Shown: in pieces, positions 40,682 through 46,496 of the stretch
How positions within the stretch are numbered: the first letter of the stretch is position 1
Layout of the letters: each line of letters starts with the position of its first letter
Origin: Minisyncoccota bacterium
GTDB lineage: Bacteria; Patescibacteriota; Minisyncoccia; Phycocordibacterales; UBA9973
Length of the DNA: 56,409 nt
NCBI GenBank assembly: GCA_041657885.1
Contig: JBBABB010000003.1
Coordinates: forward strand, 1 to 56,409
Direction: 5' to 3'
The notes under the pieces: model-generated
Database searches by the model: none
What the model saw: only the letters and a program-made list of their open reading frames with translations
What the model was told of the DNA's origin: nothing
Program-made: the position numbers and the translations under genes

Positions 40682-40793
40682 GTGCTGGCGGCAACCTACT
40701 TTCCCCGTTTATAGAGTATCATCGGCGCAACGAGACTTAACTTCTGTGTTCGGAATGAGAACAGGTGTGACCCCCGTGTTGAACCACCAACAC
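40682..40793 (-). rRNA. rrf: 5S rRNA
   Basis: The reverse complement reads GTGTTGGTGGTTCAACACGGGGGTCACACCTGTTCTCATTCCGAACACAGAAGTTAAGTCTCGTTGCGCCGATGATACT...GTAGGTTGCCGCCAGCAC. It contains the conserved CCGAAC..AGAAGTTAAG box and a 10-bp terminal helix. Confidence 0.9.
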
Positions 40794-40891: not shown

Positions 40892-41134
40892 TGATTTCCA
40901 AATTTCCTAATAGGAATCGAACGATTAGTACGCCTCGGCTGAACACATTGCTGTGCTTACACCTAGCGCCTATCAACCTGATCATCTCTCAGGTTTCTCA
41001 AACGATTCCTCATCTTGAAGCTGGCTTCCCTCTTAGATGCTTTCAGAGGTTATCCATTCCCGACATAGCTACCGGGCAGTCCACTTGGCAGTAGAGCCCG
41101 TACACCAGAGGTCAGTTCATTCCGGTCCTCTCGT

Positions 41135-41545
41135 CACTTCATAAAAACTAAATTATTTTAGTTTTCACTATTCCCCTATTTCTAGGAGCGCAGACTATAT
41201 CTTCACCTTTTTCTGAAAAATTCAGAACGAAGGGTTGGCATATTACAGATATATGCAGTCATTTTCTAAGAAATGATTCCTCATATATAAGTCTCTCCTT
41301 ACGGATTAGTCGTTACGGGGTCAAACCTAAAACCCTATGCAAATCTTTGCATCAAGATAAATTAGATCGACTTCCCACGGTATTATCTTATCATTTTCTG
41401 GTCCTCAAGTAAATTCTCAACACAACGGCAGGACCGCACATTTGTGTATGTATAAGTGGACAAAAAATAATTTAAGACTTCACCGTTATTAGCCAAATTG
41501 TCATCACAAATTTCTTTGTGAAGTAGCAGAAACCCTCTCGGGTCT
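41135..41545 (-). mobile_element. Group I intron (411 nt, no ORF) inserted in the sarcin-ricin loop sequence
   Basis: The exons read ...GTTCCTAGT | intron | ACGAGAGGACCGG. The 5' exon ends in U and the intron ends in G. P1 pairs UAGU+AGA with UCUGCUA and has a U.G pair at the splice site. An S-like element GAAGATATAGTC lies at 41192-41205. Confidence 0.8.
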
Positions 41546-41701
41546 ACTAGGAACAAATCTTCTCAAGAATCAACGCCTGCAGTAGATAGGAGACCAACCT
41601 GTCTCACGACGGTTTGAACCCAGCTCGCGTACCTTTTTAATTAGCGAACAGCTAAACCCTTGGTAGCTTCTCCACCACCAGGATAAGGTGAGCCGACATC
41701 G

Positions 41702-41993
41702 TAAACGTAGCTATCAACAAAATATTTTAATTGCTAATAACACCGCCATCACTGGCGGGATCGGACTATATCTTCATCCTTCCATTAATCAATAATAATG
41801 GTTAGGAGATTGGCGTCTAGTCTCTGAGGATTCTTGTTAAAAATTTTAACAAGCCTTTCCTGCTGATTACCTTATCAATTACGAATAAGGGTTCCAGCAT
41901 ATGGCCAATTATTTTATTTTTCTCTTTACACCTATCAAACGTAAAGAAAAAACGCTAATATTATTTCTAATATGGCACCCCGATAATATGTTA
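41702..41993 (-). mobile_element. Group I intron (292 nt, no ORF) after U2500 (E. coli numbering by hand count), in the peptidyl-transferase centre
   Basis: The exons read GTTCGGCACCT | intron | CGATGTCGGCTC. P1 pairs GGCACCU with GGGUGCC (41974-80) with a U.G pair. P10 pairs AUCG with CGAU. The conserved Q (AATCAGCAGGAAAGG), R (CCTCAGAGACTAGACGC) and S (GATGAAGATATAGTCC) elements are present. Confidence 0.8.
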
Positions 41994-42234
41994 AGGTGCC
42001 GAACTCCGCCGTCGATATGAACTCTTAGGCGGAACTAGCCTGTTATCCCTAGAGTAGCTTTTATCCGTTAATCTTCATCCGCATCTAATGCGAAATGTCG
42101 GTTCACTATGTTCTACTTTCGTATCTGCTCGAGATGTACCTCTTACAGTTAAGCTAGCTTGTGCCATTACACTATCGGCACGATTTCCATTCGCGCCTAG
42201 CTAACCTTAATAAACTCCTCCGTTACTCTTTAGG

Positions 42235-43508
42235 CATTTATGTTAACCCAATTTATATTTTAAACTTGGAAGTATATATGGCTCAATTATATTTTTAAAT
42301 AATTGTGCCGATTCGCTATACACATACAGTCTCCATTGTGAATATTGTTTATGTATTCCGACTTTAATTCCAAACTTTTTTTCAAAAACATCTTTAATTA
42401 ACTCAAGCTCATCTTTTGTGTAGCAATTCGAATGAATTATATATGTTTTATGGTGGACAGATTTATATGACCCATCATCCATAAACCACATTGCTAAACT
42501 TTTTTGACTAAACAACTTAAAAATAATTTTAGGCATTACTTTTTTACCATTATGATAAAATTGTTGTCCATAAAATCTAAATATATCGCTTGAAATTGTC
42601 ATAAAACCATAAGATTTTAATTCTTTTCCAAGTGATATTCTTGTTCTTTCTTTTGGAGCTGATATCGTGAATTCCTTAAAAATTTGATACAAATAATCAA
42701 CATATTCTTTCTGTTTGATTGAGTGCTCAACTTTAAGGCGATATGTTCTGCCATTGTTTTGTGTTTCCAAATGGCCATCTCCTAAAATAATTCCTACAAG
42801 AATTTCTTTTTGTTCATCCGTAAGCTTTTCACTAATCGTTTTACTTTGTTTTGTTTTCATATTAGGTTTTCTAATTTTAAATTAGAACTTCATGTCGCCA
42901 TGAAGATCGGACTATATCATCATCTCAACTTTAGTTGAGAGCCAGCGTATAGTCTCTGAGGATTTTTATCAGATTCCCAAAGAAGGAGAAGAAAAAATAT
43001 TGTTATACTTTCTCTTCTCAAAATTTTCAAAACCTTAGATGAGATTTAACTTTTTACAGTCCATGTAGTTGACTCAACAAGATTCAACCAGCCAAAAGTA
43101 TTGTTCAACATACGTCTATGTATTCCTCTACAATCGTTAAGTTGTCCTGATTATACGGACTCTGTCATTATGCTTACACACAATGAGTATCTACCTAAGT
43201 GGTAGCCTACTTTTTCTCCTTGGTCTTGAATTAAATTCAAAGAACATTTCTCCTTCTTTGGAAACCCAATAAATCTTTCCTGCTGATTGTCCGCCGATTT
43301 TTACATCTCACTTTAAGATTTTTACTATTTATATTTTATAATAAATTAGTACTTAAAGATACATGCGGATGTTTCAGCATACAGCTGATTTTCTATCATC
43401 GTTTACACGATGATGTCCCCTTGTTTTATTTTTTTCGAGGTGGATTAGACCTCTCGAGGCGGCATAGTTCGAGAATTCAAATAGAAATTTATTCTGTTTA
43501 AATTCTCG
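42235..43508 (-). mobile_element. Group I intron (1274 nt) carrying a LAGLIDADG homing endonuclease gene, inserted just 3' of the P-loop (about E. coli 2262 by hand count)
   Basis: The exons read ACTGGGGCGGTATCCT | intron | CCTAAAGAGTAACGGAGG. The 5' exon ends in U and the intron ends in G. Q (AATCAGCAGGAAAG), R (CCTCAGAGACTATACGC) and S (GATGATATAGTCC) elements are present. The ORF occupies the 3' third of the intron. Confidence 0.8.
42243..42860 (-). CDS. Double-motif LAGLIDADG homing endonuclease (intron-encoded)
   Basis: It has two LAGLIDADG motifs, ILVGIILGDGHL and LAMWFMDDGS, and is 205 aa long. It lies entirely inside the intron. Confidence 0.85.
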   Translation of the reverse strand: MKTKQSKTISEKLTDEQKEILVGIILGDGHLETQNNGRTYRLKVEHSIKQKEYVDYLYQIFKEFTISAPKERTRISLGKELKSYGFMTISSDIFRFYGQQFYHNGKKVMPKIIFKLFSQKSLAMWFMDDGSYKSVHHKTYIIHSNCYTKDELELIKDVFEKKFGIKVGIHKQYSQWRLYVYSESAQLFKNIIEPYILPSLKYKLG

Positions 43509-43819
43509 AGGATACCGCCCCAGTAAAACTACCCACCAGATACTGTCTCTCTACGTTTTTGCCGTAGAGATTAGAATATATCGTCACAAAGAATGGTATT
43601 TCACTGTCGAGTAAATCACAACCGAGATCGTGACCATCAAACCTCTCCCATCTATGCTACGCAGAATAACCATATACTCAATATCAAGCTGCAGTAAAGC
43701 TTCTAGGGTCTTTTCGTCTATCTGCAGGTAACCGGCATCTTCACCGGTATTGTATTTTCACCGAGCAGGTCTTCGAGACAGCTCTCCAGTCATTATGCCA
43801 TTCGTGCGCGTCGGAACTT

Positions 43820-44059
43820 CATTACTCAACACCAATTTATTTATAAAAATTAGTGTGAACCCTTTATTTCTAAAGGAATGGACTATATCTTCATCCTTAA
43901 TAAATTATTAAGGATGTTTGCGTGTAGTCTCTACGGTGTCCCCGTAAATTATGGGGTTCCCTCGGTATTGCCATATTTAATTTTCATTAAACTTAGGTTT
44001 CACCGATACAGCAAATTATCGATCAGTTTTACAACTGAAAGGGGCAAGTTCCGATACTT
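43820..44059 (-). mobile_element. Minimal group I intron (240 nt, no ORF) after U1951 (E. coli numbering by hand count)
   Basis: The exons read CCTTGTCGGGT | intron | AAGTTCCGACGCGCACGAATGG. P1 pairs GGGUAAGU with ACUUGCCC and has a U.G pair at the splice site. The intron ends in G. R (CCGTAGAGACTACACGC) and S (GATGAAGATATAGTCC) elements are present. Confidence 0.8.
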
Positions 44060-44073
44060 ACCCGACAAGGTAC

Positions 44074-44114
<41 letters not shown>

Positions 44115-44294
44115 CAGGGCTTATATCAGCCAGCCTACATCTTGCGACATAGACCACCGATATTTGACCTTCTGGCATTGGTCAGGCATCACCCCCTATA
44201 CATCCTCTTACGAGTTCGCAGGGAGCTGTGTTTTTGATAAACAGTTGCCAGAGATACTTTCGCTGCGGCCCCGGGCATCACGCTACGCGCGATG

Positions 44295-44377
44295 TTAATT
44301 AAGAATTAATAATTAAAAATTAATAATGAAATACAAAATGCATTCAATTCTTAATTCCTAATTCATAATTATTAATT
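44295..44377 (-). other. AT-rich heptad-periodic hairpin expansion (IVS-like) in the 23S helix 63 region
   Basis: One arm is AATTAAG AATTAAT AATTAAA AATTAAT AATGAAA. The complementary arm is TTCTTAA TTCCTAA TTCATAA TTATTAA. Both have an exact 7-nt period and are embedded where E. coli has the short helix 63. Confidence 0.7.
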
Positions 44378-45040
44378 GCATCACATGCAATGTGATGCCT
44401 AGGGCAAGCCTTATTCCAAAGTTACGGCTGCTTGTTTGCCGAGTTCCTTGAAGACCTCTCACTCGTTCGCCTTGGTCTACTCGACCTGATTACCTGTGTC
44501 GGTTTACGGTACGGATTCTATTTCATTAACCTTAGATACTTTTCTTGGAAGCGTGCTTTATAAAATCTGCCTCGACGAATCGAAACATTTATGCCTCGCT
44601 TGGGTGCCACTTTTACGTGCATCTTCCGGATTTTCCTGGAAGAAACCCTCACTAACATACTCAAATCCAATAATGAGCTTTATATACTACACTCCGTCCT
44701 ATCATCGAATAAAATAGAAGTCAGGGAATATTAACCCTGTGCCCATCGGATGCGGCTATCGCCATTTCCTTAGGACCGACTAACCCTGGGGTGATTACCA
44801 TTGCCCAGGAAACCTTAATCTTTCGGCGGGAAGGGATCTCACCTTCCTTGCGGTTACTTGTGCCAACATTCTTACTTCCACACGCTCCACCATGGGTCAC
44901 CCCTTTGGCTTCGACGCTGAGTGGAAAACTCTCCTACCGCTCCCAATTTTAAAAAAATGGAAGCCCTCAATTTCGGTATTATGTTTAGCCCCGATTATTT
45001 TCGGTGCGAAATCTCTGGATGAGTGAGCTGTTACGCTTTC

Positions 45041-45072
<32 letters not shown>

Positions 45073-45203
45073 TCATTGTCAGAGAAATTTCACCTCCTTG
45101 ATTTGCACTTAACATAAATTTAGGGACCTTAATTAGAGATCTGGGCTGTTTCCCTTTTGGCTGATGGAGCTTCGCCCCCATAGCCTAACTGCCGTGTTTT
45201 TTA

Positions 45204-45338
45204 CCCCCACACCTACTTTACCATCGTTCTGTTTTTTCAAAACAACATTAACATTATTTTAATATTCTAATTAATAATATTATTTTTAATAATACAATCA
45301 ATACAGAACAAAAAACAATGGCAAAGTAGGTGTGGGGG
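45204..45338 (-). repeat. 135-nt hairpin IVS in 23S helix 45 (CCCCCACACCTA family, copy 1)
   Basis: cccccacacctactttaccatcgttctg...cagaacaaaaaacaatggcaaagtaggtgtggggg replaces the helix-45 tip, between GAATACTAAGAGTAAAC and TAAAAAACACGGCAG. It is about 98 percent identical to 46076-46212. Confidence 0.85.
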
Positions 45339-45725
45339 TTTACTCTTAGTATTCGGAGTTTGATAGAATTCGCGAGATTACTCCCTGTCGAAACCTTCCA
45401 GTGCTCTACCCCTAAGAGGAACACACGACGCTAGCCCTAAAGCTATTTCGGAGAGAACCAGCTATTACCAGGTTCGATTAGTTTTTCACTCCTTACCACA
45501 AGTCATCCGAGACTATTGCACGGGTCACCGGTTCGGACCTCCATCTGCCTTTCGACAAACTTCATCCTGCTCATGGCAAGCTCACCTGGCTTCGGGTCTT
45601 ATCTAGACTACATTTATTTCGCGCTATTAACACTCGGTTTCCCTAAGGCTCCACTGTTCTAACAGCTTAGCCTGCAGCATAGATAAACTCGTTGGCTCAT
45701 TCTTCAATAGGCACGCCGTGACGGA

Positions 45726-45771
45726 CAGAACAAAATTTTCGAAAAAAATTCCTTTCAAAAATTTTGTTCTG
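45726..45771 (-). other. Extended helix 25 hairpin (small IVS-like expansion)
   Basis: CAGAACAAAATTTT cgaaaaaaattcctttca AAAATTTTGTTCTG lies at the helix-25 position. It shares the CAGAACAAAA string with the 135-nt IVS family. Confidence 0.6.
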
Positions 45772-45826
45772 CCCGCTCCGACTCCTTGTAAGTATATGGT
45801 TTCAGGTCTATTTCACTCCCCTTATC

Positions 45827-45869
<43 letters not shown>

Positions 45870-46075
45870 ATCTAAAAAAGTATTTAGCCTTACCAGTTAG
45901 TTCTGGTGGATTCGCTCAAGCTATTCGTGTCTTGAGTTACTCAAGAATGACAATCAAGAAGATGTGAAATTTTCAACCACCGGGCTATCACCGTCTATGG
46001 CTCTTCTTTCCAGAAGATTAATCTAACAACACATTTTGTAACTTCTCTAGATAAATCTACATTGTCATCTTACAA

Positions 46076-46212
46076 CCCCCCCACACCTACTTTACCATCG
46101 TTCTGTTTTTTCAAAACAACATCAACATTATTTTAATATTCTAATTAATAATATTATTTTTGATAATACAATCAATGCAGAACAAAAAACAATGGCAAAG
46201 TAGGTGTGGGGG
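46076..46212 (-). repeat. 137-nt hairpin IVS in 23S domain I (CCCCCACACCTA family, copy 2)
   Basis: It has the same sequence as 45204-45338 apart from 3 substitutions. It is inserted right after AGTAGCGGCGAGCGAAAAGGAAAGAGCCCAAA. Confidence 0.85.
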
Positions 46213-46496
46213 TTTGGGCTCTTTCCTTTTCGCTCGCCGCTACTCAGAAAATAAATATTTTTCTCTTTTCCTCCAGGTACTGAAATGTTTTACTTCCCTG
46301 GGTATGCTCTTTTGTGTCAAGCACAAAAGTTTCTAAGGATTACTTAGAAGGGTTTCCCCATTCAGAAATTTCCGGATCAAAGGTTGCTAGGCACCTCCCC
46401 GAAACGTATCGCCGCCATGCTACGTCTTTCATCGCCTTTTTTAGTCTAGGCATCCGCCATATACTCTTATATTTCCTATTAGGAAATATGAAAACC

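Follow-up and report, generated by a model that had tools for sequence, protein, structure and literature searches.

Evidence for an ORF-less, IA-like group I intron inside the sarcin-ricin loop of a CPR 23S rRNA gene

An intact sarcin-ricin loop (SRL) in 23S rRNA is needed for the function of EF-G and EF-Tu, and the 23S rRNA gene analysed here is interrupted within that loop. What is the interrupting insert, and how would a working ribosome be made from such a gene? The gene lies on a stretch of DNA of 56,409 nucleotides (the window; GC content ~33%, range ~28-40%), where it occupies approximately 46480..40900 on the minus strand, and Rfam places a 5S rRNA gene downstream at 40683-40791. An initial reading of the letters (the sequence-only reading) had proposed a group I intron of 411 nt between U2656 and A2657 in E. 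coli numbering, the position having been counted by hand.

Whole-gene alignment to the E. coli 23S rRNA gene (L120:345-3248) with MAFFT places the insert at window positions 41545..41135 (minus strand), directly after E. coli position 2656. In E. coli numbering, AGUACGAGAGGACC begins at 2654, so the split falls between U2656 and A2657, inside the SRL. Both the length of 411 nt and the hand-counted position were exact. On the minus strand, the gene reads UUGUUCCUAGU up to the 5' junction, the insert runs from AGACCCGAGAGGG to AUGAAGUG, and the gene resumes with ACGAGAGGACCGGAAUG. Seen from the SRL, the string breaks after UUCCUAGU, is filled by AGACCCGAGAGGG to AUGAAGUG, and continues with ACGAGAGGACCGG; SRL DNA uninterrupted by an intron reads TTCCTAGTACGAGAGGACCGG. 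The last four nucleotides of the 5' exon, UAGU (41546..41549, minus strand; E. coli 2653-2656), form the exon half of the P1 helix described below, and the final U (41546), which the sequence-only reading had also noted, takes part in a U·G wobble. The 3' exon begins at ACGAGAGGACCGG (41122..41134, minus strand; E. coli 2657-2669), which holds the rest of the SRL including its GAGA tetraloop. An A is the first base of both the intron and the 3' exon, and sequence alone would permit a shift of 1 nt. The boundary is fixed at U2656/A2657 by the U(-1) rule and the terminal-G rule together with covariation of the P9.0 helix.

The SRL is not the only interrupted part of this gene. Three more large insertions, all on the minus strand, were seen at 44059-43820 after position 1951 (240 nt), at 43508-42235 after 2262 (1274 nt) and at 41993-41702 after 2500 (292 nt). 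They hold Rfam group I matches of 90.4, 41.2 and 85.9 bits, respectively, giving a 23S gene with four group I introns and ~2.2 kb of intron sequence in total. The insertion at 2262 encodes a 205-aa ORF (42243-42860, minus strand) that matches LAGLIDADG_2 (PF03161, E 8e-43), a family that differs from the LAGLIDADG family of introns at the SRL site. Relative to E. coli, the gene also has smaller insertions (40-170 nt) at 46209-46030, 45770-45731, 45343-45197 and 44403-44309 (minus strand), which follow positions 275/288, 544, 926/934 and 1708. Two of these weakly match plant miRNA-precursor models and thus form long hairpins; the smaller insertions may be IVS-like or expansion segments. No 16S rRNA gene was found within the 56-kb window (1-56409) that holds the 23S-5S pair, and the rRNA genes appear to be unlinked.

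We searched the insert with the Rfam model of group I introns, as the sequence-only reading had suggested. Under permissive thresholds, RF00028 (Intron_gpI) matches 41172-41541 (minus strand) over the full model with 34.4 bits and an E-value of 3.7e-7 to 4.4e-6, the lower value coming from a local search. The score lies below the gathering score of 50, which is an operational cut-off rather than a biological defining feature, and the model penalises long peripheral insertions; a compact homologue at the same site (L030) reaches 55.8 bits, above the gathering score. The aligned blocks are the classical AACGACUA (J6/7-P7) and GAAGAUAUAGUC (J8/7-P7). The minimum free energy (MFE) of the insert has a z-score of -3.8, none of 100 shuffled sequences folding as well, and the MFE fold by itself recovers P2, P3, P4, P5, P6, P8 and P9. 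Since the RF00028 match and the z-score are joined by at least 90 homologous introns at the same site, the resemblance exceeds chance. An ORF search gave no meaningful ORF in the insert, in agreement with the sequence-only reading; the sole one, of 57 aa with a TTG start, begins in the exon.

The homologues were found by scanning GTDB species representatives for loci at which a base other than U stands before the 3' half of the SRL (VACGAGAGGACCGGRRTGRAC), which returned at least 119 loci. At least 90 of these are full-length homologous introns at exactly the U2656/A2657 site, and further loci are interrupted by contig ends. Introns of this family follow the exon UAGU with AA..UUGCUAC and then a P2 hairpin, and end in G before ACGAGAGG. 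Among the matches listed, nearly all hosts are CPR/Patescibacteria, with names that include Paceibacterota, Nomura-, Yanofsky-, Kaiser-, Zambryski-, Staskawicz-, Campbell-, Adler-, Lipton-, Harrison-, Niyogi- and Peregrinibacteria; many MAGs named Saccharibacteria also occur. The closest relative among the matches listed is a Ca. Paceibacterota MAG (L050), 92% identical in the exon flank and 83-87% in the intron, which shares the peripheral elements of the window copy. The suggestion that the host is CPR-like was therefore borne out. A 47-mer across the 5' junction of the window had no exact match in the contigs of species-representative genomes.

Some loci returned by the scan were set aside. 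Four apparent non-CPR or archaeal occurrences (L002, L020, L065 and L080) are chance pattern matches in GC-rich DNA that is not rRNA. Six others (L035, L062, L091, L094, L097 and L106) are 23S genes without an insertion, in which G, A or C stands in place of U2656 (for example CCCUAGGACGAGAGG). They come from non-CPR MAGs (Alphaproteobacteria, Paracoccaceae, Lachnospiraceae and Christensenellaceae), and are unusual changes of a near-universal nucleotide or, possibly, assembly errors. Clear family members were also seen on contigs binned as 'Mycoplasmatales' (L049, CAXUEP010000002.1) and 'Chloroflexia' (L100, JBBRVL010000400.1), which could be misbinned CPR contigs or rare non-CPR occurrences. 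Many MAGs labelled 'uncultured Candidatus Saccharibacteria' (among loci L003-L119) carry the SRL-site intron, while Saccharibacteria 23S genes were reported to be almost without group I introns (Tsurumaki et al. 2024, PMC11270868); this mismatch reflects either unreliable automated labelling of the MAGs or the absence of these lineages from the published sample. Rfam tRNA matches inside or next to the 23S span of CPR loci (L032:6063-6136, L032:6159-6269 and L050:2049-2123) could be tRNA genes or tRNA-like elements in rRNA insertions or spacers.

A core in canonical order, P3-P9 with the P3/P7 pseudoknot, can be drawn for the window copy, and all of its helices pair (coordinates are window positions on the minus strand throughout). 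At the 5' end, P1 joins exon UAGU and intron AGA (41549-41543) to the internal guide UCUGCUA (41530-41524), placing a U·G pair at the splice site. This is the P1 that the sequence-only reading described, and all four exon pairs, including the U·G, are invariant in 30/30 aligned sequences. The intron part of P1 (41524..41545) consists of AGA at 41545-41543, a CCC-GAGA-GGG extension hairpin with a GNRA loop at 41542-41533, and the guide. The extension also occurs in some relatives with other GNRA loops. Its loop, CCCGAGAGGG, shares CGAGAGG with the SRL, and mimicry of the SRL was considered; in relatives this loop is a variable GNRA tetraloop (GAAU, GUAA, GAAA or GCAA) or is absent, and we therefore treat the likeness as chance.

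P1 is followed by P2, a UCACAAA-GAAA-UUUGUGA hairpin (41504..41521), and by the 5' strand of P3, UUGGC (41492..41496), which pairs with GCCAA at 41239-41235; this 3' strand (41235..41239) closes the P3/P7 pseudoknot. The P4-P5 domain (41377..41486), in which CGGUCC and GAGGACC blocks are conserved across the homologue alignment, comprises P4 (CGGUG/UACCG, 41485-41481 with 41382-41378), P5 (GUCUUA/UAAGAU, 41478-41473 with 41390-41385) and a P5 peripheral extension of ~80 nt (41470-41391) that is predicted by the MFE fold only. P6 and P6a, with a small terminal hairpin, span 41317..41376. The 'R' element, J6/7 with the 5' strand of P7 (GUAACGACUA, 41307..41316), contains CCCCGUAACGACU, invariant in 30/30 aligned sequences; the G of its GACUA, paired to C41193 in P7, is presumed to form the guanosine-binding pair. 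The 'S' element, J8/7 with the 3' strand of P7 (UGAAGAUAUAGUC, 41193..41205), is the strongest block of the Rfam alignment, and AAGRUAUAGUC within it is conserved in all homologues. The S-like element of the sequence-only reading is thus present as GAAGAUAUAGUC at 41204-41193, and both the R and S elements of the window copy can be aligned with the Rfam consensus and do not vary within the family.

Between P7 and the 3' strand of P3, a segment at 41245..41305 folds into two extra hairpins, P7.1 (UCC-GUAA-GGA, 41305-41296) and P7.2 (~41292-41245). Exactly two hairpins are predicted for this segment in 82 of 89 listed members of the SRL-site family, and they point to an architecture like that of subgroup IA, for which P7.1 and P7.2 are diagnostic. 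P8 (41206..41233), a CCUU...AAGG hairpin with an inner UUCUGAA/UUCAGAA stem, is assigned from the pair count, in which it is partly misaligned, together with structure prediction. Toward the 3' end lie the 5' strand of P9.0 in J7/9 (GC, 41190..41191), the P9 hairpin CUCCUA-GAAA-UAGGGG (41173..41188) and a peripheral hairpin, P9.1 (GUGAAAACUAAA / UUUAGUUUUUAU, 41141..41168), which is an MFE prediction and is present in some relatives only. The intron closes with the 3' strand of P9.0 (GU, 41137-41136) and the omega-G at 41135, together 41135..41137. A sixth P7 pair, C(41312)-G(41191), was considered and rejected; it is paired in only 22/30 sequences, and G41191 fits the covarying P9.0 better.

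We then asked whether the drawn helices covary. The window intron and 29 homologues of at most 550 nt, each with 10-nt exon flanks, were aligned with MAFFT, which fits the sequences to no structure, and pairs were counted for the hand-drawn P1-P9 structure. Standard pairs fill 91% of cells, and both sides change in 29 of the 54 pairs. The covariation score of 0.31 compares with 0.12 for shuffled alignments, none of 500 of which reach it (shuffles ignore kinship), and with 0.05-0.09 when the pairing partners are slid by 1 to 3 columns, a control that allows for kinship. The signal comes from P2, with compensatory changes in 7/7 pairs, P3 (both-side changes in 4/5 pairs; 98% of cells paired), P5, and P9 (5/6 pairs; 100% of cells paired). 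No variation is seen in P1, P4, P7 or the base of P6, and covariation is thus neutral on P4, P6 and P7. A group I core is therefore found, paired and covarying, where the sequence-only reading would have been overturned by its absence. At every invariant column of the alignment, the window copy has the conserved base.

The last intron base is G in 91/91 sequences, even though A and C were equally admitted by the search pattern, and the window copy ends in G as the sequence-only reading had said. P9.0, a 2-bp helix between the bases after UAGUCU and the two before the terminal G, forms in 90/91 sequences, compared with a mean of 53 and a maximum of 64 in shuffles, and does so with 10 different pairing dinucleotide combinations. 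Because P9.0 covaries beside the terminal G, the 3' splice site is fixed to the nucleotide.

Position, homology, a conserved and covarying core and invariant splice-site nucleotides together make the group I identity well supported, and the whole of 41135..41545 is assigned to the intron on the basis of the E. coli alignment, the RF00028 match and the same-site homologues. The proposal of the sequence-only reading has thus been upheld by the Rfam match and by covariation and splice-site conservation over 30 to 91 homologues. We conclude that the insert is very probably an ORF-less group I intron of IA-like subgroup at L2656 in the 23S gene of a Paceibacteria-like host within CPR/Patescibacteria.

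Longer members of the family show what the window copy lacks. Introns of ~740-1040 nt carry an ORF in the loop of P6. Its reading frame continues across the P4'/P6 core (..NTVGSRS..), a LAGLIDADG motif occurs once (AYIAGFLDGDGS), and the protein ends ..LGLTP at the UAA of J6/7. In L113, L033, L102, L017 and other long members, the last codons (LGLTP) and the stop coincide with the 3' strand of P6 and the UAA of J6/7. With the endonuclease ORF threaded through the ribozyme core in this way, constraints on the protein and on the RNA structure overlap. Two of the ORFs match Pfam LAGLIDADG_1 (PF00961; E 8e-12 and 1e-8), and the nearest solved structures to the family endonucleases are the homodimeric I-MsoI, I-CvuI and I-CreI. 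Copies of intermediate length (L009, L050 and L026) hold truncated ORFs, and in the window copy the ORF region is represented by its two ends alone. This length series fits the gain-decay-loss cycle of homing endonuclease genes. Judged by its sequence, the window copy may either descend from an ORF-bearing form or have been ORF-less from the start. As it is without an endonuclease gene, it cannot home by itself; the single-domain, I-CreI-like LAGLIDADG_1 enzymes of its relatives presumably cut intron-less SRL DNA.

An architectural parallel is found in chloroplasts. Chloroplast LSU introns of subgroup IA3 carry endonucleases of the I-CreI family, as in Cr.LSU at L2593 of Chlamydomonas reinhardtii. 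Introns of this type resemble the SRL-site family in their IA-type core, which has additional helices between P7 and P3', and in a single-domain, homodimer-type LAGLIDADG ORF in P6. The likeness is drawn at the level of IA, and whereas Cr.LSU lies in domain V of a chloroplast rRNA, the SRL-site family lies in domain VI in CPR bacteria. The group I introns already known from bacterial 23S genes, at L1917, L1931 and L1951 (Coxiella, Thermotoga and Simkania, as cited in PMC11270868 and PMC3984707) likewise occupy highly conserved 23S regions, often with LAGLIDADG genes, but in domain IV rather than domain VI, where the window SRL intron is found.

How would the window 23S rRNA be matured? In a splicing reaction consistent with this structure, exon UAGU (2653-2656) would be held in P1 by the guide sequence GCUA, with U2656·G marking the 5' splice site. 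The attack on that site would come from an external guanosine docked at the G-C pair of P7. The terminal G (41135), placed by the 2-bp P9.0, would then replace the external guanosine in the P7 site, and the free 3'-OH of U2656 would attack after the terminal G, joining the exons and restoring AGUACGAGAGGACC. We infer from the sequence that the window intron catalyses these steps and that its exons are ligated. That splicing is obligatory for the window 23S rRNA, as the sequence-only reading held, is a sound inference: the SRL must be intact, so ligation is the sole outcome that fits a working ribosome, assuming that the cell has only one 23S gene. Insertions in CPR rRNAs have been described as removed from transcripts (Brown et al. 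2015, as cited in PMC11270868).

The alternative that survives best accepts the group I intron and doubts only its autonomy. The intron may be unable to self-splice and may need a protein in trans, such as a host factor or a maturase-like LAGLIDADG protein, for example the one encoded in the L2262 intron. Many IA and LAGLIDADG-associated introns need protein help, maturase-like activity of Thermotoga I-TnaI is cited in PMC3984707, and a LAGLIDADG_2 protein is encoded in the same gene (42243-42860). P10, too, is absent or weak, and no convincing one could be drawn. On the other side, the core is complete and has peripheral stabilising elements with GNRA loops, and ORF-less copies are widespread over lineages, which suggests independence from a cognate maturase; neither point is decisive. 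We regard dependence on a protein as a real but minority possibility.

The more radical alternative is that the insert is no intron. Intervening sequences (IVSs) processed by RNase III are located in helices 9, 25 and 45 of 23S rRNA; they are simple extended stems in variable helices and leave the rRNA fragmented. Like the window insert, they are extra sequence in the 23S gene that is absent from the functional rRNA, and an IVS at this site would be cut out by RNase III or another nuclease without ligation, leaving the 23S rRNA fragmented inside the SRL. Ribosomes are inactivated when the SRL is broken, as by alpha-sarcin. IVSs that fragment the rRNA occur in bacterial 23S genes and have been proposed for some CPR insertions (PMC11270868), and the window 23S gene itself carries several hairpin-like insertions in variable regions. 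The insert at the SRL departs from this pattern: it has a ribozyme core that is complete, conserved and covarying, and it sits in a universally conserved loop, not in a variable helix. Its ends lack the typical long stem, the multi-domain MFE fold being closed by a 3-bp stem only, and the U·G pair, terminal G and P9.0 conserved at its exact boundaries have no role in nuclease excision. We consider excision as an IVS extremely unlikely. Just as hard to credit is a degenerate intron that no longer splices, in an rRNA gene copy without function, or a chimeric assembly, as might be suspected from the missing ORF, the sub-threshold Rfam score, the extra peripheral sequence (P5 extension and P9.1) and the probable origin of the source in a metagenome assembly, given that every invariant column of the 30-sequence alignment is retained, all core helices pair, the exons are collinear with E. 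coli 23S over the whole gene, the same insertion occurs in at least 90 independent assemblies and L050 shares the peripheral elements.

The sequence-only reading had taken catalogued LSU group I sites to lie elsewhere than the SRL, and in this it was wrong. Tsurumaki et al. (2024, J Bacteriol, PMC11270868) surveyed 348 CPR 23S genes and named the frequent insertion sites 23IS1-14. LAGLIDADG_1 genes predominate at positions 1917, 1931, 1952, 2593, 2604 and 2657 (23IS6-8 and 23IS12-14), and position 2657 (23IS14) is a frequent CPR site of group I introns with such genes; ORF-less copies with similar cores occur at the same sites (PMC11270868). Because the published '1952' is the classical L1951, the published '2657' is L2656, the site at which we found at least 90 homologues. 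The published 23IS14 family agrees with the window copy in site, CPR host clade, group I type and the presence of ORF-less copies alongside LAGLIDADG_1 copies. The window copy itself is a new sequence, 83-87% identical to the nearest listed species representative. The survey describes the introns as clustering around the PTC in domain V; it mentions neither the SRL nor domain VI and gives no secondary structure, subgroup or splice-site analysis for site 2657 (PMC11270868). In a literature search for rRNA introns at 2656/2657, with organellar intron catalogues outside its scope, Tsurumaki 2024 was the only work found, and searches by neighbouring site names (L2655 to L2658) gave nothing relevant. 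Among papers that combine the SRL with group I introns, none describes, in its title or the opening of its abstract, an intron inside the loop, and most name both only as examples of RNA structure.

The window intron therefore belongs to a large, published CPR family, and the new elements are an explicit structure and splice-site evidence for the site-2657 family, together with its framing in terms of the SRL. The comparative structure added for this family runs from P1 to P9.1, with P9.0 and IA-like P7.1/P7.2, and shows an I-CreI-like endonuclease ORF threaded through P6. P1 sequesters half of the SRL, and the large subunit would be unable to activate EF-Tu/EF-G until splicing has occurred; in CPR bacteria, which have few ribosome biogenesis factors, this intron family might on this ground be seen as a late control point built into ribosome maturation, or a regulator of it, rather than a neutral parasite. 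We think this highly unlikely. Nothing in the present data speaks for a regulatory role rather than plain selfish persistence, and we would put little weight on such a role.

The practical consequences are modest, and no new question is opened: annotation of CPR rRNA and the design of primers and probes should expect an insertion at the SRL. For the biology of these bacteria, the finding means that the gene segment for the SRL, among the most conserved and critical of rRNA elements, tolerates a mobile ribozyme, and in CPR does so routinely. The endonucleases of the family would target a universal sequence, among the most conserved DNA known.
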